A DNA stretch of 64,000 nucleotides from an uncultured Clostridia bacterium (GTDB taxonomy: Bacteria > Bacillota > Clostridia > TANB77 > CAG-508). The stretch spans positions 19,451 through 83,450 of the forward strand of contig CAKPKP010000005.1 of the NCBI GenBank assembly GCA_934167495.1. Reading direction: 5' to 3'. Positions 3,363 to 18,305 of the stretch are shown piece after piece. Position numbers and translations under genes: made by a program. Under the pieces are notes generated by a model that made no database searches, was not told the origin of the DNA, and saw nothing but the letters and a program-made list of their open reading frames with translations. Positions within the stretch are counted from its first letter, which is position 1. Every line of letters begins with the position of its first letter.

Positions 3363-4256
3363 TTATCTCACCAAAACTCCATTAAAAAATTGTTCTTGAA
3401 ATGCAATCTGTGCATATATTTCATCATCACTTGGAATATTCACATCACTACGGATATTCCCTTCTTCATCACAAGGAACTACAATCCATTTGGTTTCATT
3501 ATCATCATATCGATGATATACTGCAATTACTTTTCCTGTATATTCCGTTACAACTGAATTCTCCCCCAAAAGATAAATATCCTGCTCCGCTCCATCGCCA
3601 CCTTTTACATCAGTAACATATCCGTAATTAATAGGATAAATTATATTTTTATGTTTTGGATGAAAACTTCCAATAGGACGATCTATTTTTCCTCTTACTA
3701 CTTGACCTATGACATCACGATATCTATCTAAAGGTATAGGATTTTTCTCAACTTCAAAAATATCACCAATACTCAAACAGCATTCACCACGATCATACAT
3801 TTCTTTAATTTCTTCCAATGTAAGCCATTTTGTTTGAATTACTTCTTTTGTTGTAGCTCTTTGTAAATCTGGTTCTTCTGTTATCTCAAAATAATAAGAA
3901 TCTCTTATCCAGTTATATCGGCATCCATGATAAGTCATTGCAACTTTTGTAGCAAGAATTGTTGCATTTTCTGGTTGTAATGTGATTCCTACTTCCTCAA
4001 ATACTTCTCTCAAAGCAGCATCTAAGCTATTTTCTCCTAATATGGAATGTCCCTCAACTGTTTCCCATTTCAAAGGATCTCTGTCTTTATCTGCAGAGCG
4101 CTGAGACACTAAATATTTTCCGGTCTTAGTATTTTTAATAAATACCATAACCCACATATGAAATTCATCTTCCAAAAGATTTCCTTGTTCACCACGAACA
4201 CACTTTTTTCCTGTTCTTTTCCTATCTCTTGTATACACGTCCCACAATTCACTCAT
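3363..4256 (-). CDS. NUDIX hydrolase fused to a family-I inorganic pyrophosphatase domain
   Basis: Nudix box GHSILGENSLDAALREVFEEVG in the N-terminal half. The C-terminal half has YPINYGYVTDVKGGDGAEQDIYLLG and IPSDDEIYAQIAFQEQFF, which match the PPase motifs YPxNYGxI...DGDPxDVLV and AQIAHFF. Local GC is visibly higher than the flanks. Confidence 0.7.
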   Translation of the reverse strand: MSELWDVYTRDRKRTGKKCVRGEQGNLLEDEFHMWVMVFIKNTKTGKYLVSQRSADKDRDPLKWETVEGHSILGENSLDAALREVFEEVGITLQPENATILATKVAMTYHGCRYNWIRDSYYFEITEEPDLQRATTKEVIQTKWLTLEEIKEMYDRGECCLSIGDIFEVEKNPIPLDRYRDVIGQVVRGKIDRPIGSFHPKHKNIIYPINYGYVTDVKGGDGAEQDIYLLGENSVVTEYTGKVIAVYHRYDDNETKWIVVPCDEEGNIRSDVNIPSDDEIYAQIAFQEQFFNGVLVR

Positions 4257-4475: not shown

Positions 4476-6092
4476 TTAATTATTTATACTTTTTAATTCA
4501 TTCCATCTATCTATAGACATCAAAACCTCTCTTGGCTTACTTCCTTGATAACCAGATATAATTCCTCTTTCTTCCATCTGATCAATAATTCTTCCTGCTC
4601 TTGCATAACCTATTTCAAATCTTCTTTGTATAAATGAAGTAGAAGCTTGTCCTGTTTCTATTACTGCATCTATGGCATCCATTAAAAAAGGATCTGTATC
4701 ATCATCAATATCTAATTTATGATTATTTAATATTTGAAATCTATCTTCATTATATCCATTTTTTTCTTCTGATTTTATATAATTAGTAACTTTTTCTAAC
4801 TCATTATTAGAGATAAAAGCACATTGATATCTTTTTAATTCATATATACCAACTTCTTTAAAAAACATATCTCCATTTCCTAATAGTTCTTCTGCTCCTA
4901 TAGCATCTAAAACTACTTTTGAATCAATTTGTGATGGAAGTCTAAAAACTACTCTAGTAGGTATATTGGCTTTTATTGTTCCGTTTATAATATTTATTGA
5001 AGGTCTTTCAGTAACTATTATGATATATATTCCAACAGCCCTTGCTTTCTGAGTTAGTATGTAAATATATTCTTCAATTTCCTTTTTATCTGTTTCTATT
5101 AAATCAGCATATTCATCTATAATAAGTATAATATTAGGCAATTTCTCACAATCATTATGTTTTTCATTATATTCTTCTATATTCTTTACGCCTTTATTTT
5201 TAAGCATTATATATCTATTCTGCACCTCTTGACAGAGCCATGCCAATGCTCCTAAAGCCTTTCTTGTATCAGTTATAACTGGTACTAATAAATGTGGTAT
5301 TTTATTATATAATGATAATTCTACAATTTTAGTATCTATCATTAAAAATTTTACTTCATTTGGTTTTGCTTTATATAAAATACTATTTATTAATATATGT
5401 AAAAACATACTCTTTCCAGATCCTGTTGTTCCTGAAATTAACATATGGGATGTTTTTTCAATATCCATTATTTTATATTTTCCATAAATATCTTTTCCCA
5501 ATCCAACTGTAAGTTTAGATATACTATTTTTAAATTCTTCAGCTTTTATAATTTCTCCTAATTTAACTATCTCTTTATCTCTTCTTTCAGTTTCGATACC
5601 TAATAATTGCTTTTCTGGTATTATTTTAATATCTATAATTTTTGTTCCTAAATTTAAAGCTAAATCATCTTTTAGTTTCTTTACTTTATTAACAGCAATG
5701 CCTTCATCTAATCTTATTTCATATGTTACAATTATTGGACCTATTGATACCTCTTCTACTTTAGCTTTCACTCCAAAGCTATATAATGTTCTTTGCAATT
5801 TTTTAGCACTTTCTACTAATATTTTTTTACTTTCTATTTGATTGAAATTTGTTTTCACATCTAATAATTCTAATGGTGGTAAATTATATTCTATTATTTC
5901 TGTTTCACTTTCTAGTGTTTCATTTTGACTATTATTTTGTTCTTTTTCTGTTAGTATTATATCTTCTTTTTGGTTTTCTTTAATTTCTATAACTTCTTGT
6001 TTAAATAATATTTCTTCATTTTCTTTTATTGCTTCAGCTACTAAATCGTTATTTTTTTTATTTTTTATAAATTTAAAAAATCTTTCTATCAT
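4476..6092 (-). CDS. FtsK/SpoIIIE-family DNA translocase ATPase, soluble form without an N-terminal membrane domain, with a C-terminal gamma winged-helix
   Basis: Walker A GTTGSGKSMFLH. The C-terminal DPFLMDAIDAVIETGQASTSFIQRRFEIGYARAGRIIDQMEERGII resembles the FtsK gamma domain. No hydrophobic N-terminus. Confidence 0.75.
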   Translation of the reverse strand: MIERFFKFIKNKKNNDLVAEAIKENEEILFKQEVIEIKENQKEDIILTEKEQNNSQNETLESETEIIEYNLPPLELLDVKTNFNQIESKKILVESAKKLQRTLYSFGVKAKVEEVSIGPIIVTYEIRLDEGIAVNKVKKLKDDLALNLGTKIIDIKIIPEKQLLGIETERRDKEIVKLGEIIKAEEFKNSISKLTVGLGKDIYGKYKIMDIEKTSHMLISGTTGSGKSMFLHILINSILYKAKPNEVKFLMIDTKIVELSLYNKIPHLLVPVITDTRKALGALAWLCQEVQNRYIMLKNKGVKNIEEYNEKHNDCEKLPNIILIIDEYADLIETDKKEIEEYIYILTQKARAVGIYIIIVTERPSINIINGTIKANIPTRVVFRLPSQIDSKVVLDAIGAEELLGNGDMFFKEVGIYELKRYQCAFISNNELEKVTNYIKSEEKNGYNEDRFQILNNHKLDIDDDTDPFLMDAIDAVIETGQASTSFIQRRFEIGYARAGRIIDQMEERGIISGYQGSKPREVLMSIDRWNELKSINN

Positions 6093-6110
6093 AATTTTTC
6101 CTTTTTATTT

Positions 6111-7607
6111 TTATATACTTACATATTTTTGATTTTTATGATTTGGTTTTTCTGGTATAGTCATCTGCAACAATCCTTTTTCTAATAATGGTTTTAAATA
6201 TAGCATTGTGAAATTTCTTGTATGTTTATATTCCATATATTCCATTATCTCTTTTTTGCTATGCGGTTCATTACAAAATTCTAATATCTTTATTTCTTGC
6301 TCATTTAACTTAGTCGGTTCTTGGTCGGTTCTTGGTCGGTCTTTTATTTCATTTTCAAATCCCTCATGCATAAATATAGTTGTAATAAAATAATCTCTTG
6401 TATCATTTGTTTCAAATTCTGGTTCTTTTGAACCATTATTTTTTAAAGCTCTTTTAATTTTGGGAACTCCTGTATTTCTGCCCTCTGTTAATTTCAATTC
6501 TTTCAAAAATTCACCAATTCTACGATTTCTATATTTTCTTGCTATCATATTTTTATCTTCAATTGATTTTTCGCTTATTGAGCGATCTGGTCCGGGATAG
6601 CTTACAATATGAATTCTATCTTCCATTATTCTTACTTCCACAGGTTCTCTTACATCATATCCTCTGTGATATACTGCATTTACAAGGGCTTCTTCAATTG
6701 CTTGATAAGGATAATTGAAAAATCTTTCTGCTTCTGCTTGTCCTTCAATTTTTAGTATTCTTTCTTCAATTACTGTATTTCTAATAAAAGTTAATGCACT
6801 TTTTATCATACTATCTATTGGTCCTTTAAATATTCTCTCTGTCATATTATCACCTTCAGGACCATTTCTTAAATCTACTACTTCTATTTGTGAATATGGA
6901 AAGAATTTTTGTGGTTCATCATTAAAGAACATTAAACCAACATTTAGTGGTTTCATATATTCTGGTGTTCCATCAACAATTCTCATACTTTTGCATAAAT
7001 TCATAAAATCCATATTTTCAGATTCTTTTAATAAATCACTCTTAATTTCATATAAATAATTTTGAATTAATGGCAATTTCAAATCTCTAATTTCCGCTTC
7101 ATGATTCATCCTATCGTCAAAAGGAATTGTTCTTGCCATATCATATAATTCTTTTTGCTCTGTTTCTGTTGCTTTTACTGTATTGGACATTTTTCTTATA
7201 TAATATGAATATCCTCTGGAAAAATCTTTATCTAATGTTGTTGGACACTTGTATGGTCTTGTTTGTCCTCCAAAGCACCATACTACTAATATATTTTTCT
7301 CTTTATATTTTGCAACATCTACTATTGGTGTATATGATGGTTGTATTAATTTGCATTTTGCTAGTAATTCTTTTTGAATTTTATCTATTTCTGATAATTC
7401 CAGTCCTGTTATTGGAATTTTAGGTCTCCCGTTTTCTTCTTCGACACCAATTAATATATATCCTCCACCCCAATTATCTATATCATTTGCAAATGCACAA
7501 ATTGTATGTAATATTGGTTCTGGATTCCAATTTTTCTTTAATTCTAACCTTGCATTTTCGACAATGTTCTCATTTAGTATATTCTCTATACTTGTAGGTA
7601 ATTTCAT
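6111..7607 (-). CDS. AlbA_2 (Schlafen-like) plus HATPase_c_4 ATP-binding putative DNA-binding protein (COG2865-like)
   Basis: N-terminal ICAFANDIDNWGGGYILIGVEEENG (AlbA_2 signature). Later EEALVNAVYHRGYDVREPVEVRIMEDRIHIVSYPGP (HATPase_c_4 signature). C-terminal HTH-like tail. Confidence 0.65.
   Translation of the reverse strand: MKLPTSIENILNENIVENARLELKKNWNPEPILHTICAFANDIDNWGGGYILIGVEEENGRPKIPITGLELSEIDKIQKELLAKCKLIQPSYTPIVDVAKYKEKNILVVWCFGGQTRPYKCPTTLDKDFSRGYSYYIRKMSNTVKATETEQKELYDMARTIPFDDRMNHEAEIRDLKLPLIQNYLYEIKSDLLKESENMDFMNLCKSMRIVDGTPEYMKPLNVGLMFFNDEPQKFFPYSQIEVVDLRNGPEGDNMTERIFKGPIDSMIKSALTFIRNTVIEERILKIEGQAEAERFFNYPYQAIEEALVNAVYHRGYDVREPVEVRIMEDRIHIVSYPGPDRSISEKSIEDKNMIARKYRNRRIGEFLKELKLTEGRNTGVPKIKRALKNNGSKEPEFETNDTRDYFITTIFMHEGFENEIKDRPRTDQEPTKLNEQEIKILEFCNEPHSKKEIMEYMEYKHTRNFTMLYLKPLLEKGLLQMTIPEKPNHKNQKYVSI
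6313..6345. repeat. 11-nt tandem repeat (tcggttcttgg), about 2.6 copies, inside the 3' part of the 6111..7607 CDS
   Basis: Direct reading: tagtcggttcttggtcggttcttggtcggtctttt. Confidence 0.6.
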
Positions 7608-8965: not shown

Positions 8966-10729
8966 TCAACCATAGTTATAGATATTGTTCTTATTGTAAA
9001 TTTTGAAACCACGCCCAGTAAACTGAAGTCTAGAGCTTTCATCAACAACACTACAATTGAATTCCTTTGCAGTATTTTTAACGATATTAGTTCCGATAAT
9101 CTTGCCATCTGCCGGATCATAAATAGTGTTGTTGTAAAAATCAATATTTCCCAGTGGCTGAGCATTATACATGATAACATCATCATCATATTCAATGCAA
9201 TTCTTGTTAAATACTATTGTACGATACTTACCATTGGAAAGCTGATATACAAACAACCATTTCTGAGTAACACGATCATACTTGATAGCATACTCATTAA
9301 TTCTTCCATTGTAATCTACCTTGAAAGTATAATCCGGAGTTGTAATTATTGCAGTCTTAGGATACATAGATACGATAAATACTTTGCCATCATCCGATGC
9401 TTCAAAGAACGGATTATACACCTGTCCCAAATAGTTCGGCATATTTCCACTCTTAGTGATAGAAAGTCTGACCAAATTATTGCCTTTATCCACATAATAC
9501 AGGTTTCTATCTTTTACAAGATAGTTAGACTTATGCATACGTTCGATAGTGGCTGTAACCTGATTATTCTCATCATACACCTGAATTGAATCATCATCAA
9601 TAACAAAGACAACCTTACCATCATTAGAGAAATCTACTCTCTTGCCTCTTTCAACTACAAACTTTCTTCCAGTTTCAAAATGAACAGCCTCATTGCTTCT
9701 GTTAAGATAATGCACATTGCTTAATACGTATGCACAATCCACACCAGCAAATATAACTGTAATCTGAGGTCCATTTGCAGTCTGGGTAACCTTTGCCACA
9801 ATAGGTGCTATCTTGACCTTCGCATTCTCGTTACAAAGTGAACACTCATTGAACTTTGAGTAATAATAAATATCGTGAATGCTACAATACTTCATATTTT
9901 TAAGAAGTTCCTGAAGATCTGCTGTGATGTCAATTTTCTTTCCCTGCTCAAAGATTTCAAGAAAATCCTTTTCAAGCTGAGGCGACATCCATTTCCAACT
10001 GCCGATAATTTTTGGAATTTTAATATCTCCCTTGTGCTTGCCCACAATTGATATTTTCCTTTTCATTCTCTCTATAGTAGAAAGGTTTTTATCAGGAAGA
10101 TATGTTCCACCGAAAGGATGGATTCTCGTAAGCATATTGAATGCAAGAATAGCAAAGTTGTAGTTTTCATTTTCCATAGAAAAATTAATACTGCCACTTG
10201 AAGAATAACTGTCGGGGCATGTGAAAAGTTCTGTATAAGCGTCGGGAGTATATTTTCCTTCAATCCCCCAACTATCAACATCAATAAAGTAATCACACTT
10301 TCCATTAATCTGGAAGTTATAATCACTTACATCTCCGACAATAATGCCTGTAGAGTGCAATTTGCCTAAATCTTTGCCTAAATCTGTAATTATCTGCAAT
10401 ACATCCTGATTTGACAAGTGTGCAGCAGTAAGATACTTTGGTTTAGTAAGCATATGCAAATCTTCGACATCAACAAGTTTTCTCATTGCATAACCAACAA
10501 ACTTGCCCTGAACTGTTACCACTTCTTCCGGACCAATCACATTTTTAGGCAACTGATCTTTAATTGAAATGAAATAGTTTACCTTTTCCTTTTTCCGTGC
10601 CAAATCTACATTAGGTTTAAAAACCTTGATAACTCTTTTCGAGTCATATTCGTATATAGTCGCTTCTCCGCCTTCTGCCAATTTGTTAAGGCTTTCAACA
10701 CGGCTTCGACTAGTAAAATTAATAGCCAT
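8966..10729 (-). CDS. Hanks-type Ser/Thr protein kinase with a roughly 400-aa C-terminal beta-propeller-like region (kinase of a TerY-P-like triad)
   Basis: Gly-loop LAEGGEATIYEY, beta3 Lys VIKVFK, catalytic loop LHSTGIIVGDVSDYNF (D-x4-N), DFG-like FIDVDSWG. The C-terminal half shows repetitive beta-strand-like segments. Confidence 0.65.
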   Translation of the reverse strand: MAINFTSRSRVESLNKLAEGGEATIYEYDSKRVIKVFKPNVDLARKKEKVNYFISIKDQLPKNVIGPEEVVTVQGKFVGYAMRKLVDVEDLHMLTKPKYLTAAHLSNQDVLQIITDLGKDLGKLHSTGIIVGDVSDYNFQINGKCDYFIDVDSWGIEGKYTPDAYTELFTCPDSYSSSGSINFSMENENYNFAILAFNMLTRIHPFGGTYLPDKNLSTIERMKRKISIVGKHKGDIKIPKIIGSWKWMSPQLEKDFLEIFEQGKKIDITADLQELLKNMKYCSIHDIYYYSKFNECSLCNENAKVKIAPIVAKVTQTANGPQITVIFAGVDCAYVLSNVHYLNRSNEAVHFETGRKFVVERGKRVDFSNDGKVVFVIDDDSIQVYDENNQVTATIERMHKSNYLVKDRNLYYVDKGNNLVRLSITKSGNMPNYLGQVYNPFFEASDDGKVFIVSMYPKTAIITTPDYTFKVDYNGRINEYAIKYDRVTQKWLFVYQLSNGKYRTIVFNKNCIEYDDDVIMYNAQPLGNIDFYNNTIYDPADGKIIGTNIVKNTAKEFNCSVVDESSRLQFTGRGFKIYNKNNIYNYG

Positions 10730-10741
10730 TTCAATACCTCC

Positions 10742-11668
10742 TTAGAAGCAGATTGAAATATCATCATGGAACATCTCATTTTTAAGATTATTCCTATTAA
10801 TGAGTTTTTCAATCTGAGGTCCTTTACCTTCATGTAAAAACTTCATCAATTTTGACTTTTCAAGCTCCAGAAGATTTTCCGAATATCTTAATCCATCGCT
10901 CGCAACTCCGACATTAGAATATTCGGATTTGCTAAAACGAGTTACCTTAAAGCTCACGCCTTCTTTGTACTCTTTGAGAGCGGATTTGTCTGTTATAAAA
11001 TTGTAGATGTAGTAGCAAGGATATTCACCATCATGGAGTTCATCAAAGAAGATTCCTTCCTCATTTTCCTTAATGATGTATCCATCACCACAGCTATATA
11101 CAACAAACTCATCCTCTAACTCAAAACATACCAGAATCGTAAAACAGTAATTCTGAAAAATGAAAGATGTATCACTACAGAGCTCCAGCATCTTCTCAAA
11201 AATGCTATTTACAATTTCGATAAAGTTTTCCTCACATATTGATTCACCTTTATCAAAGTATTCTTTTGATTTTCTGGCAAAAAGTTGCCCGAAAAGCCTT
11301 GTTCCAACCTCAGAGTGTTTACCAGAGCCACAACCATCTGTTACAATCTTCATATTAAGAAGATTAAATGCAAAATCATGATTATTCATGTTTGCAAATT
11401 TATGGTCCGAGCCCATTTTACAAACTCTGATAGTTGTCCTTTTAGGATGTTCCTTTGATGCAATTTCTTCAGATTCGACTGTTTCGAGTTCAGTTGCAGT
11501 TACACTCTCGGTTTCTACAACTACCTGGGTAGTATTCTTTGTAGACTCACTTTCTACCACAGTAGTTTCACTACTTACATTGGTTGTTTCTGTTATTTCC
11601 GAGACTTTTTCATCCATAGGTGGATTTTTGGCAGTCCGGAAATTTTCTAAAATTGATTTCATATACAT
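10742..11668 (-). CDS. PP2C-family protein phosphatase with a disordered N-terminus rich in Ser, Thr and Glu
   Basis: VTDGCGSG, VYSCGDGYII and VGVASDGL correspond to PP2C motifs. About 80 aa of low-complexity TETTNVSSETTVVESESTK... at the N-terminus. Only 12-nt gap to the kinase gene. Confidence 0.65.
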   Translation of the reverse strand: MYMKSILENFRTAKNPPMDEKVSEITETTNVSSETTVVESESTKNTTQVVVETESVTATELETVESEEIASKEHPKRTTIRVCKMGSDHKFANMNNHDFAFNLLNMKIVTDGCGSGKHSEVGTRLFGQLFARKSKEYFDKGESICEENFIEIVNSIFEKMLELCSDTSFIFQNYCFTILVCFELEDEFVVYSCGDGYIIKENEEGIFFDELHDGEYPCYYIYNFITDKSALKEYKEGVSFKVTRFSKSEYSNVGVASDGLRYSENLLELEKSKLMKFLHEGKGPQIEKLINRNNLKNEMFHDDISICF

Positions 11669-11677
11669 TACCTCCTA

Positions 11678-11712
11678 TAGAAAAAGAGGGATTGCACTGC
11701 AACCCCTCTCAG
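11678..11712 (-). terminator. Internal stem-loop plus T-run (attenuator or partial terminator) between the vWA and PP2C genes
   Basis: Minus-strand reading gagaggggttgcagtgcaatccctctttttc: stem AGAGGG(g)TTGCA / TGCAA(t)CCCTCT followed by TTTTT. Confidence 0.4.
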
Positions 11713-11751
11713 ACTTTAGTTATTGTTGTTAACTTGCAGATTGTCTACTTC

Positions 11752-12453
11752 TTATACGTCGAAGAATCCGCCGTCATCGTTTCCGCCTGCACCAGAACTT
11801 GCCTTCTTAGATGCTGAAATAGCACTCTTGGAAACAAGATCGATTACTCTACGGAGTTCACTCTCATCATTGCTTACTTCCTTAACATTGTTCTTCTTAA
11901 CACCGATAGAATCAGCAACTCCGAAAGCTCCCTGTCCAAAAGCGATGAAAGCTACCGTGATTTCCTTAGAAATCAAATCCTGAATAGCCTGACGTGCATC
12001 GCTTGCACGATACTGTGAACCATAATCTTCTCCATCCGACAGAATAATCAAACATGCACGGGCATTTGTACCATTGTTTTTCAACTGATCCATATAGTCC
12101 AGCATACGCTGACGTCTGTCGATGATAGCATCATACAATCTTGTACAACCGCCTGCAGAATAATCAGTATTGAAATCCTCAGGGGCTACATAGCCACCGG
12201 TCTCAATTGTAGATTCGAAAACAGTTTTGCTTACAAGCATTTCATCGGACTGTTTGGAATTTGAGATTGCTTCCTTGTAGTGCTCAAGGCACTCGCACAT
12301 TGCTCTCTCATACGGATCCATTGAGCCGCTGCCATCGATAAGAAAATCGACAAGCATAACGCTTGGGGATACGACGTCATCAACGTCCATGTTTGTTGCA
12401 TAGGTTTCGTCCAAACCGTCGATTGTAATGTTGTCCAAATATTCTTCGCTCAT
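11752..12453 (-). CDS. vWA (von Willebrand factor A) domain protein, TerY-like
   Basis: MIDAS motif LVDFLIDGSGSM (DxSxS) near the N-terminus. Length and order (vWA, PP2C, kinase) match the TerY-P triad. Confidence 0.7.
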   Translation of the reverse strand: MSEEYLDNITIDGLDETYATNMDVDDVVSPSVMLVDFLIDGSGSMDPYERAMCECLEHYKEAISNSKQSDEMLVSKTVFESTIETGGYVAPEDFNTDYSAGGCTRLYDAIIDRRQRMLDYMDQLKNNGTNARACLIILSDGEDYGSQYRASDARQAIQDLISKEITVAFIAFGQGAFGVADSIGVKKNNVKEVSNDESELRRVIDLVSKSAISASKKASSGAGGNDDGGFFDV

Positions 12454-12476
12454 AGTGTAATCCTCCTCATTATTGT

Positions 12477-13391
12477 TTAAAACTGAATATCTGTTGACTT
12501 GGCAAACTTGATGCCGTAGGAATTCTTAAAGTTGTCAAACGCTGCCACCGTATCTGCTTCAAAACCAGTAATTGGAGAAGTACAATCCTCCAAAATGGTA
12601 ATCTTCTGAGTAACCTCAGGACGGTTAGCAAAGTGTTCTGCGATCTGTTTAACTGATTCCATAAGGCAATGGCTTGCCGCTTCACCTACAACGTAGATCT
12701 CATCATACTTCTCGATAGCCGTGAGAACAGGCGTATTCAAGAAGTTTTTCTTGCTGTATTCCGGCTTAATGATACCATACATTTCACTGTACGGATCTTC
12801 ACCCTTAGGTATCATGTGGTCAACACACTTACGAGCTACAGAATGGAAATAAACCATCTTTGCGAATTCGTTTTCGAGTGAGTTGCCCTCTGTACCTTTG
12901 ATGCAGTGATAAGGCCAGATACAAAGCTGTTTCTTACCGGCTCCGACCTTTTCCAGTTCTTTCAGATACTGAATAGAATCTTTCGGGTTACCAATAACGG
13001 GACGCCAACGATTGTTCACAACATCATCGTAGGTAATAACTGTATAAGGGTCCGGATGATCACCTGCAGAATTTACCCACCAACAAGGATGGAAAATCTG
13101 GTGCGCGATATGAGTATCCAGACTGCACATAATACTTGAAATTCCCTCAATGTTGTTGTAAATGAAACGTGTCATACGTTCCACATCGCCGATAGATCCA
13201 GGAACTGCCAAAGCACCGCCTTCGATGAAATCCTTCTGAACATCAATGCACAAAAGCAAACGCCGAGGAGAATCATCAATTGATGCCGTAAACCGTTCCT
13301 GTTCTGCCATAGCAAAGATGGCGTTCATGTCTGTTGCAGAATGCTGACCAATCTTGGTAACATCTACAATCTGTTCGTAATTTGTCTTCAT
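12477..13391 (-). CDS. Isochorismatase-family cysteine hydrolase, nicotinamidase (PncA)-like, enlarged to 304 aa
   Basis: LLLCIDVQKDF (catalytic Asp), later Lys, and VVGEAASHCLMES (catalytic Cys). CSLDTHIAHQIFH matches the PncA metal-binding D-x-H-x3-H...H pattern. Confidence 0.6.
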   Translation of the reverse strand: MKTNYEQIVDVTKIGQHSATDMNAIFAMAEQERFTASIDDSPRRLLLCIDVQKDFIEGGALAVPGSIGDVERMTRFIYNNIEGISSIMCSLDTHIAHQIFHPCWWVNSAGDHPDPYTVITYDDVVNNRWRPVIGNPKDSIQYLKELEKVGAGKKQLCIWPYHCIKGTEGNSLENEFAKMVYFHSVARKCVDHMIPKGEDPYSEMYGIIKPEYSKKNFLNTPVLTAIEKYDEIYVVGEAASHCLMESVKQIAEHFANRPEVTQKITILEDCTSPITGFEADTVAAFDNFKNSYGIKFAKSTDIQF

Positions 13392-13538
13392 GTGAATACC
13401 TCCTTGAACTAAAGTTGATTAATAAATTTTTGCTAGTCAGTTGACTGCTGTTTGCCTCAAATCTCATTGTGTACCTCCTTAAATGTAAATGAGACAACAG
13501 TTTTGAATGCAAAGCAATCATTTATTGACATGTCAGTT

Positions 13539-13567
13539 ATTATACCATAGATAACATAAAAAGTAAA
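13539..13567 (-). promoter_or_regulatory. Candidate sigma-A promoter (TTTACT-17-TGgTATAAT) for the nicotinamidase-vWA-PP2C-kinase unit, with a roughly 150-nt leader
   Basis: Minus-strand reading tttactttttatgttatctatggTATAATaactg; extended -10 TGn. Confidence 0.35.
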
Positions 13568-13635
13568 TAGTTATGTTAATTTTTACAATTTTCTTTGATA
13601 TTTGCACTATTTGTTAAGTTTACATTTTAAATAAA

Positions 13636-13664
13636 GCTAGCCCACTTTAATAAAGTAGGCTAGC
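13636..13664 (-). terminator. Stem-loop terminator after the NAMPT-like gene
   Basis: gctagcccactttaataaagtaggctagc (GCTAGCC stems) followed on the minus strand by a T-rich stretch. Confidence 0.45.
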
Positions 13665-13696
13665 ACAAAATAAAATTATTTAGAAAATATTAACTC

Positions 13697-15256
13697 TTAG
13701 AACTTGCCGTTATAAACTCTCACGGATTCACTTGCAACTCTTTCTCTGATTTGATCGAAAGTCTGAGTGCGAACGAAATTTCCGTTAACAAAAACATCTT
13801 CAAGCTGGTTTCCTTCAACATTTTTGATAGTTTCAGGTGTGAGATTATCAATGAGCTTGTAATCTCCATCTTCAAAAACGACGGCAACCAAGCCTTTCTG
13901 AGACTTCTTGAATTTGTCCGAATCTGTCGCAGGGTCCTTATAAATTGCTCTAAATTCCCCATTAACAACTTCAGCTGTTCCCTTCAATGCAAAACCTAAG
14001 GTATCACGTGTCATATACTGGTATGTATAAGAACCAATACCTAAGCCAACACTTACAGTAACGAATTCTTTTTCCATCAAGACTTTGCAAATTGCCTCTG
14101 CTCTTTCAGGAGTAATAGAATCTCCGTAAACAGAACCAATATGAGGATCAATGTCAATGAATCCTTTTTCGTTTTTCGTACCGCCAAATATCTCATACAG
14201 ACGCTGAATCAAACCTTTATTGATTGTTTCAGCAAAGCCCTTTAAACGTTCATCCACATTTTCCTCAGTTGCATCTTTATCTCCGCAAATGATTTTAATG
14301 GGATCGCCGGAGTCAGGTCTGATATTGACCTTTCCATGACGTTTCATAATGGCCTCTTTAACCTCAGAATCTGTCAAAACATTGTCAACAAGATTCCACA
14401 GATTGTATGTATCGGATACGATTGTAACAGTTCCACTCGGATACACATCTGTAACCAGTCTTAAAATAGCATTCTTTTCATCACGCCCATAAGACTCCAT
14501 TACACTATGCTCTGTTGAAGGAGCATAAGCGATAACATTCGGATTAGCATCGTAATACGCCATAAGGTAATTTCTCGCAGGAATCGTTGCAGAACCACCG
14601 AAACTTAACAAATGGCCGGGTGTAGAACGATATGCAGCCTCAGGGCTACCCATGCCACGCATAGAAAAGTCTCCACCCTGATTGAAAACTCTTTTTTCCT
14701 GATTGCATCCAGTCAGTTTAGCATAATGAGTAAGAATTCTCTTATACTTATCTGCTATAGTTGCATCCGTCATTGGCTGCCAAATAAGGCAAGATACCGG
14801 TGTTTCCAAGTAACCAGTAAACCAGAAAAACTCAGGTAGAGTATTCTCGATGGTAAACATAGGAACTCCGATAGGTACAAATGTACCTTCTTTTAGAGCT
14901 TTCACTTTAATAGGTAAATAACCTAACTTGTGAAGTTTCTCAAAATGAGAATAGTCATAGTTCTTTACCATTTCAGGATTTGTAACTGAGAATGTACCGC
15001 TGAGGCTTTCTGTGATTTCCTCCATCACAACGTCAAGAGGTCTTTCAAAAAAGCCTTTCTGCCACTTCCAGTAAAGTGTTGAGAGTGCACCCTGCAGACC
15101 AAAGAACACAGCATGGCTTACGCCTTCAATCCGAGATTTTCTTGGTGTCCATGTTTCATAAGTCCATTCCAGACCATTAGGATACTGATCCTTATGACAG
15201 AATTTGTATCCATCTGTCAGTAAAGCGGGGTTTTCAATCATTTCGTTAAACATCAT
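13697..15256 (-). CDS. Nicotinamide phosphoribosyltransferase family protein (NAMPT/NadV homologue; possibly a Namat-like enzyme)
   Basis: Collinear matches to NAMPT blocks: [10 protein letters not shown] vs [33 protein letters not shown] vs [35 protein letters not shown] vs [23 protein letters not shown] vs LIIRPDSGNP. 519 aa. Confidence 0.85.
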   Translation of the reverse strand: [519 protein letters not shown]

Positions 15257-15276
15257 AAAGCATTCCTCCTTTTTAA

Positions 15277-16095
15277 TTACCTGTTTACATAGCCAATTAC
15301 ATCAACATCCATATACTTGATATTAGGATGTTCTTTACACATAATGGATGTACTTGTGTAAACTTTACTGATAGTTGAATCTTCGGTGAGAAGTTTTCCA
15401 TCGAAAATCGTTTCTTCGCAATGAGAAACAACCAAGTAAACTTCGCTTGCTCCCAAAGATTTCAGGATACTTCCTGCCCAAGCAAAAGTTCCTCCTTTAG
15501 AACAAAGGTCATCAATAATGATACACTTTGAACCAGGATTAACTGTTCCTTCCTTGAGACGCATATTCTCGATATTGCCGGTTATAGGATTACGCTTTTT
15601 CTCCATAATGCAGATATTAGCATAATCACTATCAGCATATCTTGCCGCAGCTCCTTTGTCAGGAAATACAACATGATCTTGCTCTGTAAAACCAATTTCC
15701 TTCTGAACTTCGGGTAACCAATCCTTTACAGGATAAATTGCAGTTGCTCTTTCCAGAAGTTCCATTGTTTTGCCAGAATGTGGCTCCATTACAACGATTT
15801 TTGCAAAATTAAGCCAATTGATGAAGTTGCAGACATATTGGAGAGTAAATAAATCTCCTTCAATCTTACGATCCATGCGACTGTATGGCATATACCATAT
15901 AAAAAGTGTACAGGGAACGTTGAACTCATCAATTCGTTTCTTTACAAACATCAAAGTAATGAGATCCGCATCGGTTGTGAACTTGAATTCGAGAACATTT
16001 TCTCCATCTATGATGGATTTCTCAAAATCTTTGACTTTGGTTTCGTTGTTAGGAAACCGCTCTGTAAGAAGTTTTGTACCATTGAGTATAAGCAT
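15277..16095 (-). CDS. Ribose-phosphate pyrophosphokinase (PRPP synthetase) homologue, short and divergent (Prs/Adps-like)
   Basis: YMPYSRMDRK vs canonical PYFGYARQDRR. IIIDDLCSKGGT vs the PRPP-binding loop VLVDDMIDTGGT. The canonical DLHA motif is replaced by EPHSG. 272 aa vs about 315 for canonical Prs. 20-nt gap to the NAMPT-like gene. Confidence 0.7.
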   Translation of the reverse strand: MLILNGTKLLTERFPNNETKVKDFEKSIIDGENVLEFKFTTDADLITLMFVKKRIDEFNVPCTLFIWYMPYSRMDRKIEGDLFTLQYVCNFINWLNFAKIVVMEPHSGKTMELLERATAIYPVKDWLPEVQKEIGFTEQDHVVFPDKGAAARYADSDYANICIMEKKRNPITGNIENMRLKEGTVNPGSKCIIIDDLCSKGGTFAWAGSILKSLGASEVYLVVSHCEETIFDGKLLTEDSTISKVYTSTSIMCKEHPNIKYMDVDVIGYVNR

Positions 16096-16182
16096 AAGCT
16101 GATACCTCCTAAAAATATTTTGTTTTAGTGTTTTGTAAGGAAATATTGTTTTCCATACTTAGTAACACAAAACTTATATAAA

Positions 16183-16211
16183 ATTATATCAAAATTTACA
16201 TAAATTTGCAA
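16183..16211 (-). promoter_or_regulatory. Near-consensus sigma-A promoter (TTGCAA-17-TATAAT) for the prs-like/NAMPT-like unit
   Basis: Minus-strand reading ttgcaaatttatgtaaattttgaTATAAT. Located about 90 nt upstream of the prs-like start. Confidence 0.5.
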
Positions 16212-16257
16212 TAGGCTAATTTCCACTCTAATTCAGTTATATTAAGCAGTTTAAAAA

Positions 16258-16286
16258 TTGACATAATATAAAAATGATGTTATAAT
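16258..16286 (+). promoter_or_regulatory. Consensus sigma-A promoter (TTGACA-17-TATAAT) for nadE, divergent from the prs-like promoter
   Basis: ttgacataatataaaaatgatgtTATAAT; about 105-nt 5' UTR ending in an AAGGAGG RBS. Confidence 0.55.
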
Positions 16287-16394
16287 ATGGCACAAGTGTT
16301 TTTATATAGCTATCAGCAATTATAGATAGCCTAAAAAACAAAGCCAAAAATATGTTGTTACTATTAAATCACAATTTTAAGGAGGTTTTTCATT

Positions 16395-18305
16395 ATGGTA
16401 AACTATGGTTTTGTAAAGTGTGCTATTGCAACTTGTAATAGTGGACTTTCTAATCCGGTAAATGCAACACAAAAAATTAAGGATTTAGTAATCACGGCAG
16501 AATCTCGGGGTGTCCAGGTATTAGTATTTCCTGAACTTTCGATGACCGGTTATACTTGTCAAGACCTTTTCGGATATTCGCAACTGTTGGAAACAACTAT
16601 GGAATGCTTACAGGATCTTGTATCCTTTTCAGCTTCTTATAATGTTCTCTTTGTTGTCGGAGCTCCTATAGATGTCTTTGATACTTTGTATAATTGTGCA
16701 GTTGTTATTCAGGGTGGAAAGATTCATGGAATCGTTCCAAAGCAGTACCTTCCTAACTACGGGGAGTTTTACGAAAAACGGTGGTTTACAACCTATACAG
16801 ATTATTCCATTACATCTGTTAATATGTTTGGTGAAGAAGTACCTTTTGGTAACTTGATTTTTTCTTCATCTGTAGGTTACAGATTAGGAATAGAAATCTG
16901 CGAAGATCTTTGGTCTGTTATTCCGCCAAGTTCTTATCTGGCATTAGCCGGTGCAAATATTATCGCAAACTTATCTTCAAGTAACGAGTTGGTTGGCAAA
17001 GATGATTACCGTAGAGAGCTGATTAGAACTCAAAGCTCAAGAACCATTTCAGCATACCTCTATACTTCTACAGGTTTTTCCGAATCAACAAGTGATTTGG
17101 TATTCGGAGGTAGTGGTTATGCTTTTGAGAATGGTAAAGTACTAACACAACTTAAACGGTATCAGATGGAAGATCAGATGGAAATTTTTGATGTTGATAT
17201 TGAATCTTTAACAAACGAAAGAATCGCTAATAAAACCTTTAGCGATAGTAAGAGAAATCTGAACTGTACTCATCGTGAGATTAAGATTTCACAATCAATA
17301 ACATCGACATCTCTTTCTCGAAGTGTTAATGCACATCCATTTGTGCCTACTTTAGATAATGACTCTAGGAGTAGAGTCTGCAAAGAGATTATTTCTATCC
17401 AGTCAACAGGCTTAGCAAGAAGGTTATCTGCAATCGACAACACAAAAGTAACTATCGGCATTTCTGGAGGATTAGATTCTACATTAGCATTACTTGTATG
17501 CTATGATGCTTTTAAAAAGCTGAATCTTGATTTTTCTGGAATAATTGGAATCACGATGCCTGGCTTTGGCACAACTGATCGCACATACAATAACGCACTT
17601 AGATTGTGTAAAGAACTTGGTATTACTTTACATGAAATTCCTATAAGGGATGCGTGTATGCAACATTTCAAAGATATTGGGCACAATCCTTCTGTTCATG
17701 ACATTACATATGAGAATGTTCAGGCAAGGGAACGAACCAAGATTCTTATGAATATGGCAAATAAACATAACGGCATTTTGGTTGGAACAGGTGATTTATC
17801 CGAATTGGTATTAGGTTGGTGTACCTATAATGGTGATCACATGAGTATGTATGGAGTAAACTGCTCTATACCTAAAACTCTTGTTAAATATCTCATTGAA
17901 TGGTATGCAATCGAAGCCGGCAAAGAAAAACCTGAACTTAAGGAAACTCTGTTGGATATTATAAATACTCCAATTAGTCCAGAGTTGCTTCCAACTGATG
18001 GTAAACAGGTTGTTCAGAAAACTGAAAGCACGGTAGGTCCTTATGAAGTCATAGACTTCTTTATCTACAATTTTTTGAGAAAGAGATTTTCTCGTAACAA
18101 GATTCTGTATCTTGCAGTTAACGCTTTTGAAGGGGTATATACAATGGAGGAACTTTCACGTTACTATGATGGATTTATTAAAAGGTTTTTCCATAATCAA
18201 TTCAAGAGAAATTGTATCCCGGACGGTCCTAAAGTTGGAACAGTAAGTGTTTCGCCGAGAGGTGATTTGAGACTGCCCTCTGATGCAGATTCAAGCAATT
18301 GGTAA
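16395..18305 (+). CDS. nadE: Glutamine-dependent NAD+ synthetase (N-terminal nitrilase/CN-hydrolase domain plus C-terminal NAD synthetase domain)
   Basis: N-terminal VFPELSMTGY and EICEDLW (CN hydrolase Glu and Cys). C-terminal GISGGLDSTLAL (SGGxDS PP-loop). Overall collinear with two-domain NadE. Confidence 0.85.
   Translation: MVNYGFVKCAIATCNSGLSNPVNATQKIKDLVITAESRGVQVLVFPELSMTGYTCQDLFGYSQLLETTMECLQDLVSFSASYNVLFVVGAPIDVFDTLYNCAVVIQGGKIHGIVPKQYLPNYGEFYEKRWFTTYTDYSITSVNMFGEEVPFGNLIFSSSVGYRLGIEICEDLWSVIPPSSYLALAGANIIANLSSSNELVGKDDYRRELIRTQSSRTISAYLYTSTGFSESTSDLVFGGSGYAFENGKVLTQLKRYQMEDQMEIFDVDIESLTNERIANKTFSDSKRNLNCTHREIKISQSITSTSLSRSVNAHPFVPTLDNDSRSRVCKEIISIQSTGLARRLSAIDNTKVTIGISGGLDSTLALLVCYDAFKKLNLDFSGIIGITMPGFGTTDRTYNNALRLCKELGITLHEIPIRDACMQHFKDIGHNPSVHDITYENVQARERTKILMNMANKHNGILVGTGDLSELVLGWCTYNGDHMSMYGVNCSIPKTLVKYLIEWYAIEAGKEKPELKETLLDIINTPISPELLPTDGKQVVQKTESTVGPYEVIDFFIYNFLRKRFSRNKILYLAVNAFEGVYTMEELSRYYDGFIKRFFHNQFKRNCIPDGPKVGTVSVSPRGDLRLPSDADSSNW

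Follow-up and report, generated by a model that had tools for sequence, protein, structure and literature searches.

Which reaction is carried out by two tightly coupled genes, one resembling PRPP (phosphoribosyl pyrophosphate) synthetase and one resembling NAMPT, that lie at positions 13697-16095 of a 64,000-nucleotide stretch from an uncultured Clostridia bacterium (assembly GCA_934167495.1, contig CAKPKP010000005.1, positions 19,451 to 83,450; hereafter the window)? Depletion of nicotinamide adenine dinucleotide (NAD+) is a central antiviral strategy of bacteria, and NAD+ reconstitution pathway 1 (NARP1) is the best-known way round it. In NARP1 a Prs homologue, Adps, pyrophosphorylates ADP-ribose (ADPR), and a NAMPT homologue, Namat, condenses the resulting ADPR-PP with nicotinamide. 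An earlier, sequence-only reading of the window had proposed that the two genes are such a pair, known from phages, rather than a Prs/NadV salvage module. Our analysis indicates that the pair does group with Adps and Namat, that the Namat homologue has a rebuilt nicotinamide pocket, and that this pocket type is accompanied by the NAD+ synthetase NadE and a nicotinamidase. With moderate confidence, we regard the locus as a chromosomal, vertically inherited system of NAD+ recycling from the NARP1 family that would follow a deamidated route, via nicotinate and nicotinate adenine dinucleotide (NaAD).

The Adps/Namat gene pair

The pair and the signals around it have the following positions in the window (ORF, open reading frame).

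15277..16095, minus strand: Adps-like (Prs-like) gene, 272 amino acids, from the ORF map
13697..15256, minus strand: Namat-subfamily (NAMPT-like) gene, 519 amino acids, from the ORF map
15257..15276, minus strand: intergenic spacer of the pair, 20 nt, with an AGGAGG ribosome-binding site, read from the sequence
13636..13664, minus strand: terminator-like hairpin of 13 bp (6 GC) with a T-run, directly 3' of the NAMPT-like gene
16183..16211, minus strand: promoter-like site TTGCAA-17-TATAAT with TG, upstream of the Adps-like gene, a consensus match only

Both reading frames and the 20-nt gap were found as previously described, and the family matches are far beyond chance (E 1.7e-132 to the NAMPT family, E 6.6e-28 to the PRPP synthetase family). 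The pair had also been credited with a shared promoter and terminator. The terminator held up as a strong hairpin followed by a T-run; the promoter is a consensus match on which we place little weight, because such sites are no commoner in the region (37 observed) than in shuffled sequence (37.8). The hairpin is the stronger of the two signals and is predicted to end a two-gene operon.

The Prs-like protein was aligned over 97% of its length with the Adps of SPbetaL1, which also has 272 residues and the same gene order, at 39% identity. Its identity to the Adps of FADO was 43%, the range across SPbetaL1, FADO and KKP_3916 being 39-43%, against 22% for E. coli Prs; the Adps enzymes of SPbetaL1 and FADO have both been functionally validated. 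The profile comparison that the sequence-only reading had called for came out on the side of Adps: a hidden Markov model (HMM) built from four phage Adps only scored the protein at 233 bits and E. coli Prs at 77 bits, and every curated Prs cut-off was missed, that of TIGR01251 with a score of 97.5 (cut-off 113) and those of the equivalog models by far (e.g. 75 vs 296). The replacement of the DLHA motif by EPHSG and the retention of the ribose-phosphate loop, both pointed out earlier, were located at residues 104-108, where E. coli Prs has DLHAE, and at residues 195-204, where the PRPP-type PP loop DDLCSKGGTF corresponds to DDLSSFGGTF of SPbetaL1. Judged by this alignment, EPHSG is a trait of the Adps family (SPbetaL1 has EPHSD) and involves no loss of the catalytic His. 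The protein lacks the C-terminal helices of Prs (alpha11-alpha12) and its RF loop is 2 residues shorter; loss of PRPS alpha11-alpha12 and remodelling of the RF and PP loops are reported traits of Adps. Residues F18, R87, H121, D161, K185, D212 and D213 of ICP1 Adps correspond to F14, R73, H106, D146, K166, D195 and D196, all present, and were dropped as a discriminator of Adps from Prs because E. coli Prs carries these catalytic and acceptor residues too. A sequence search of the PDB with the Prs-like protein returned PRPP synthetases only and no Adps entry. Taken together, the comparisons assign the protein to the Adps clade, apart from housekeeping Prs, and formation of ADPR-PP is predicted for it.

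The NAMPT-like protein matched PDB 9W5X/9W5W, identified by the depositors as SPbetaL1 Namat, with 496 bits (E 7e-148), compared with ~170 bits for human NAMPT, and its best match among 50,697 phage genomes was again SPbetaL1 Namat, at 50.9% identity. At the nucleotide level, no GenBank phage matched the island in megablast. The residues of the catalytic core are kept (D15, Y17, F197, R200, H250, R313, D315). So is the adenine clamp, which defines the Namat family through the SCH motif GSX-phi-X-phi-X-phi-TRD together with a stacking residue of the SCL loop (PMC12774641): the SCH motif occupies residues 408-418 (11 residues), and R42 of the SCL loop aligns with R40 of SPbetaL1. The clamp is required only for ADPR-PP and not for PRPP, and Namat retains PRPP-dependent activity in vitro (PMC12774641). 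NCBIfam names the family of the protein nicotinate phosphoribosyltransferase. The marks of a canonical NAMPT/NadV were not found: the position of human D219 is occupied by Ala, and NMNAT/NadD was detected neither in the island by Pfam nor among window ORFs of at least 70 amino acids by phmmer with a clostridial NadD query, which bears out the earlier statement that the island holds no NMNAT. By these comparisons the protein is a member of the Namat family and not a housekeeping NadV, and the proposal of an Adps/Namat-type rather than a Prs/NadV pair is upheld for both partners. A solved "nicotinamide phosphoribosyltransferase" (PDB 9KE8/9KEO) matched the protein with 349 bits, well above NAMPT; it has the motif GAQTYQRNTRD and keeps the Asp.

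The rebuilt pocket and its genomic partners

Seven residues of Namat contact nicotinamide: Phe189, Arg192, Asp215, Ala242, Arg306, Asp13' and Tyr15' (PMC12774641). Five of them are conserved in the window protein, the changed ones being Asp215 (Ala223) and Ala242 (Ser247); His187 is replaced as well, by Gly195, and the rebuilt amide site comprises G195, A223, Y244 and S247. G195, A223 and S247 are invariant across 13 related species, while SPbetaL1, FADO, KKP_3916 and ICP1 keep Asp and Ala. Mutation of the Asp in SPbetaL1 Namat (D215A) lowers NAD+ output 8-fold and leaves residual activity (PMC12774641). In human NAMPT the amide is bound by the corresponding Asp219, whose place in NAPRT is taken by Ser; a review table lists D219S as switching the substrate and D219A as inactive, and a study on Xanthomonas argued that negative charge disfavours nicotinate.

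When 23 proteins of the variant type were compared with 219 other members of the family, the two groups were perfectly separated at H187 (G, C or E in the variants), D215 (A or S) and A242 (Ser in 22 of 23, Gly in the remaining one), and almost perfectly at S239; a 2-residue deletion falls at 182-183. All differences surround the base site, and the ribose-phosphate and adenine contacts showed none. Asp/Ala was found in 138 of the best 150 cluster representatives at 50% identity, and the sequences with Ala or Ser followed by Ser (one with Gly instead of the second Ser) formed a single clade in a neighbour-joining tree of the family, calculated without support values. An Arg following the pocket strand (IPARNY) was considered as a carboxylate ligand and dropped, since only the Clostridia branch and its nearest relatives have it.

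Alignment and tree thus agree in placing the window's Namat homologue in a separate subclade with a rebuilt nicotinamide-amide site. The sequence-only reading had the protein condense ADPR-PP with nicotinamide. Because the amide-binding Asp is Ala and two further pocket residues differ, that condensation is probably not its native reaction. Of the residues whose inspection had been suggested earlier, the acceptor residues of Adps are shared with Prs and do not discriminate; in the Namat homologue the adenine clamp is present and the nicotinamide pocket is altered.

The earlier reading had also left out two neighbours of the pair, NadE and a nicotinamidase-fold gene, which co-occur strictly with the pocket variant. 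They and the sites facing them are listed below.

16395..18305, plus strand: glutamine-dependent NAD+ synthetase NadE, 636 amino acids, divergent from the pair (PRK02628, 825 bits with a cut-off of 473)
16258..16286, plus strand: perfect TTGACA-17-TATAAT with TG, facing NadE, a consensus match
12477..13391, minus strand: long nicotinamidase-fold amidase, 304 amino acids, from its catalytic residues, AlphaFold model and PDB fold matches
13567-13539, minus strand: promoter-like site of the 304-residue amidase, a sequence match

NadE carries the Pfam domains CN_hydrolase and NAD_synthase, reaches the curated NCBIfam equivalog cut-off and adjoins the pair in 12 of 13 related species. The divergent intergenic region between it and the Adps-like gene (16096-16394) is 299 nt long. 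A search of the entire window with Rfam brought up just RNase P RNA and one tRNA; the intergenic regions gave no riboswitch. In 11 of 13 species the amidase gene immediately follows the Namat-like gene. The triad (D50, K196, C242) and metal ligands (D92, H94, H162) of the amidase are invariant in 32 homologues, its AlphaFold model has a pLDDT of 94, and each of its 12 top fold matches in the PDB is a nicotinamidase; the protein also has a 40-residue N-terminal extension and an insertion of ~55 residues. By its residues and modelled fold it is a nicotinamidase-fold enzyme, and nicotinamidase activity is predicted for it.

The linkage was examined in a pooled set of 80 viral loci, 80 metagenomic loci and individual look-ups, typed by the Namat pocket, with HMMs for NadE and PncA built from variant-locus sequences; both families are well conserved. 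The counts were as follows.

Variant Namat, all loci (n=24): NadE 21, PncA 21, Adps 22
Asp/Glu Namat, all loci (n=145): NadE 0, PncA 0, Adps 125
Variant Namat, at least 4 kb of flank on both sides (n=10): NadE 10, PncA 10, Adps 9
Asp/Glu Namat, at least 4 kb of flank on both sides (n=72): NadE 0, PncA 0, Adps 69

Variant loci with missing partners are mostly contigs that end within ~1 kb of the gene. Fisher's test gives 5e-13 for the linkage, a value that overstates independence because the variants form one clade and that is not an independent-event probability. Clustering at 60% identity divides the variant type into 9 clusters, from viral and bacterial contigs. Five look-ups of variant-type proteins from other lineages revealed isochorismatase/PncA, Adps, Namat and NAD synthase on one strand, and NadE and nicotinamidase also stand beside a variant Namat on two IMG/VR viral contigs (116 and 146 kb) and on the GenBank phage scaffold MT835544.1. 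On the 146-kb contig (locus L031, 5986-9406) a variant Namat of 565 residues with a large insertion is accompanied by NadE and a 277-residue isochorismatase; Adps was not found within 6 kb upstream. GenBank phages searched with three variant-type proteins yielded MT835544.1 as the only variant-type record; the crAss-like cr111_1, a further candidate, was rejected as an ordinary Glu-type NARP1. A NadD homologue was present in none of the variant loci examined.

ADPR-responsive regulators of the NrtR type, which combine Nudix with a winged helix, flank two of the variant cassettes (L025, 16543-17217; L027, 128-958). None was recognised in the window, where a 297-residue NUDIX protein (3363-4256) gave no winged-helix match.

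Chromosomal setting and neighbouring genes

The locus departs from the earlier reading in its setting. The window is bacterial chromosome, with polC, dxs, frr, pyrH, uppS, cdsA, rseP, plsY, gpsA, a tRNA synthetase, iPGM, RNase P RNA and one tRNA, and the locus is syntenic in 13 species. Identical proteins occur on human-gut metagenome contigs and in one metagenome-assembled genome, and relatives are labelled uncultured Clostridia. The locus is, then, a conserved chromosomal locus of uncultured gut Clostridia and not a phage element. The block that is syntenic in most of the 13 species-level genomes consists of NadE, divergent from the Adps-like gene, the Namat-like gene, the 304-residue amidase and three further genes.

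11752-12453, minus strand: vWA gene, from Pfam
10742-11668, minus strand: PP2C phosphatase gene, from Pfam
8966-10729, minus strand: kinase-like gene, 587 amino acids, with a weak PD-T4-6 kinase match

Interspecies identity is 64-92% for the pair and NadE and sometimes only 36-52% for the four downstream genes. The genes at 8966-18305 have a G+C content of 35-44%, compared with 21-29% in the flanks, a difference that suggests old acquisition of the block from a higher-GC source. In L025, where all of these genes are found too, G+C is 49%.

A related Clostridia contig (L114) shows what may occupy the same place. Its NadE is 60% identical to that of the window and its amidase, vWA, PP2C and kinase-like proteins are 46-63% identical, and pncB, split in two, and nadD flank nadE where the window has Adps and Namat; L114 itself has no Adps/Namat. 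Both layouts would be sensible if each supplies NaAD to NadE. In another species, which has the Adps/Namat pair (L019), nadE has next to it an orphan gene for the N-terminal half of a split PncB (6056-6745, plus strand), perhaps left over from a displaced Preiss-Handler operon; the catalytic half was not found nearby.

The amidase, vWA, PP2C and kinase-like (~590 residues) genes form a four-gene unit (8966-13391, minus strand) that recurs in L025, L114, L115 and L117; in L114 its neighbour is a pncB-nadE-nadD operon, and L115 and L117 carry it on its own. The unit resembles vWA/PP2C/kinase triads. PADLOC recognised nothing in the amidase, vWA and PP2C proteins and gave a marginal kinase match only for the 587-residue protein. 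A link of the vWA-PP2C-kinase genes to the NAD pathway is possible. In L015, according to the ORF map, the amidase follows the Namat gene without this triad, and L017, with the same tblastn pattern, is probably alike. The 304-residue amidase was also considered as an orthologue of the small PncA of other cassettes, and this was rejected: in L025 the small PncA lies inside the cassette, separate from the orthologue of the 304-residue amidase, which lies with the vWA-PP2C-kinase genes. A variable gene without a Pfam match is situated ~250-300 nt upstream of the amidase module (L114, 6467-7423; L117, 6738-7733; L115, 6257-7750). Its 318- and 331-residue versions, in L114 and L117, are 55% identical, and a by-eye assignment to ADP-ribosyltransferases (an R...STT...ExE-like pattern) was abandoned in view of the lack of Pfam support.

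The flanks of the locus differ among strains. In a contig of the same species (L007, 1215-7213), the MFS, YhcG and 514-residue genes beside NadE are replaced by genes for a 985-residue SIR2_2 protein, NUDIX, Fic and an NTPase; this places a likely NAD+-degrading defence system immediately beside the NAD+ rebuilding locus. In the window (4476-7607, minus strand), a 498-residue protein with Schlafen/AlbA_2, HATPase_c_4 and Fic-like_C domains matches pAgo-associated and SIR2-PNTD models in PADLOC and adjoins a short (538-residue) FtsK-like translocase. Both are absent from L007 and L008 and look like a strain-variable insert.

Readings of the locus and known systems

From these results, the following route may be proposed: the 304-residue nicotinamidase-fold enzyme would convert nicotinamide to nicotinate, the Adps homologue would form ADPR-PP from ADPR and ATP, the Namat homologue, with its clamp intact and its pocket changed, would join ADPR-PP and nicotinate to NaAD, and the divergently transcribed glutamine-dependent NadE would convert NaAD to NAD+. 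The comparisons above demonstrate the family membership of the four proteins, the pocket substitutions and the genomic linkage; ADPR and nicotinate as substrates, and NaAD as the product, are what we infer from them.

Could the pair simply be an ordinary NARP1, which, like those of SPbetaL1, Bas63 and Paenibacillus foliorum, makes NAD+ straight from ADPR and nicotinamide and has NadE and the amidase as mere neighbours from NAD metabolism? Clear membership in Adps/Namat with catalytic core and adenine clamp intact would agree with this, as would the demonstrated function of bacterial NARP1 in Paenibacillus foliorum (PMC12774641) and the residual, ~8-fold lower activity of SPbetaL1 D215A (PMC12774641). 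We nevertheless consider it unlikely, given that the amide-binding Asp is never present in the variant clade, where H187 and A242 change along with it, and that NadE or PncA occurs at 0 of 145 Asp/Glu-type loci as opposed to 21 of 24 of the variant type; moreover, a nicotinamidase of the same operon would destroy the substrate nicotinamide, and NadE would be left without a role were NAD+ the direct product. The partners would keep their roles in a PRPP-based booster of the Preiss-Handler pathway, where the Prs-like protein makes PRPP, the NAMPT-like protein makes nicotinate mononucleotide (NaMN), and a NadD from elsewhere produces NaAD for NadE. The PRPP-dependent activity of Namat in vitro (PMC12774641), the NCBIfam name and the pocket change to Ser or Ala at D219, which resembles NAPRT and fits NaMN formation equally, speak for such a booster. 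Against it, the adenine-stacking clamp and the SCL Arg, needed for ADPR-PP only, are conserved across the clade, the Prs-like partner falls in the Adps clade and below the Prs cut-offs, and the cassettes hold the first and last steps but never NadD, which makes this explanation quite improbable in our view.

Some other role, such as control of ADPR or NaAD levels as signals tied to the vWA-PP2C-kinase module, or the use of another pyridine base, seems very unlikely. The module is conserved beside the pair, evolves faster than it, with 36-52% identity between species against 67-82%, and also stands alone elsewhere, and ADPR-responsive regulators of the NrtR type flank two cassettes; however, L015 (and probably L017) has NadE, the pair and the amidase without the triad, and the triad is missing from most variant cassettes of other lineages. 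The recycling route via nicotinate and NaAD, which we prefer, has several observations weighing against it. Nicotinate as the base is deduced solely from what has changed in the pocket and from the genes that accompany the pair. Since the variants make up a monophyletic clade, one ancestral event could account for the linkage. A metagenomic locus with 3.8 kb downstream (L121) shows no NadE, and in a related species (L014) neither NadE nor the amidase lies within 9 kb of the pair. The 304-residue amidase is not orthologous to the small PncA of other cassettes, and the module to which it belongs is also found without NAD genes (L115, L117). Finally, because ADPR arises only from NAD(P) breakdown, the route would give no net synthesis of NAD.

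If correct, the proposal would introduce a new enzyme reaction, ADPR-PP + nicotinate -> NaAD, and would explain how NAD+ can be rebuilt where a host nicotinamidase quickly removes nicotinamide. It would also turn positions 187, 215 and 242 (His, Asp and Ala in SPbetaL1 numbering) into a simple annotation rule separating two kinds of protein that are at present both annotated as NAMPT or nicotinate phosphoribosyltransferase. The locus also shows that a counter-defence pathway of the phage type has become a conserved part of the chromosome in gut Clostridia, in the place that a relative gives to the classical Preiss-Handler genes. The chances appear about even that this is a fourth kind of NAD+ reconstitution, defined by a nicotinate ADP-ribose transferase that makes NaAD, flanked by nicotinamidase and NadE, found across phages and bacteria (the 9 clusters mentioned above) and replacing the pncB/nadD of the relative in this Clostridia lineage. 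In the searchable literature, whose coverage leaves out most subscription journals, no description was found that links NARP1 or Namat to nicotinate, NaAD, deamidation, NadE or nicotinamidase.

NARP1, bacterial NARP1, NARP1-AP, RyDEP, NARP2 and NARP3 have already been described, and the original NARP1 study noted non-prophage bacterial copies and suggested housekeeping roles for them. With the NARP1 of phages (SPbetaL1, FADO, Bas63, ICP1 NrsAB) the window shares the two protein families, their gene order and tight coupling, the catalytic core, the adenine selectivity clamp and the trimmed PRPS scaffold of the Adps type. It differs in having G195, A223 and S247 for His, Asp and Ala, in the company of NadE and nicotinamidase (10 of 10 well-flanked loci of the variant type), in a predicted product of NaAD instead of NAD+, and in being chromosomal and vertically inherited in Clostridia. 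The NARP1 of Paenibacillus foliorum (PMC12774641) is likewise an Adps-Namat pair encoded in a bacterial genome and functional outside phages; however, pfNamat, an enzyme that makes NAD+ from nicotinamide, shares 72% identity with SPbetaL1 Namat, whereas the window protein shares 51% and belongs to the Ala/Ser subclade. In NARP1-AP, with its Macro-domain phosphatase Adpp, and in RyDEP-associated NARP1, accessory enzymes also widen the input to a two-gene core. Those accessories act on the ADPR side (ADPR-1P, cyclic ADPR), while those of the window would act on the pyridine side, with the core transferase itself altered. NARP2, or NadV with NMNAT, also recovers the pyridine base by an enzyme of the NAMPT fold, but requires NMNAT and uses PRPP, whereas the window has no NMNAT and its protein carries the Namat clamp. 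The Preiss-Handler pathway (PncA, PncB, NadD, NadE) has in common with the proposed route a nicotinamidase as the first enzyme, NadE as the last and NaAD as the predicted intermediate. The PRPP-dependent PncB and the ATP-dependent NadD would here give way to Adps and an ADPR transferase, and the route of the window would reuse ADP-ribose where the Preiss-Handler pathway builds the dinucleotide from PRPP and ATP.

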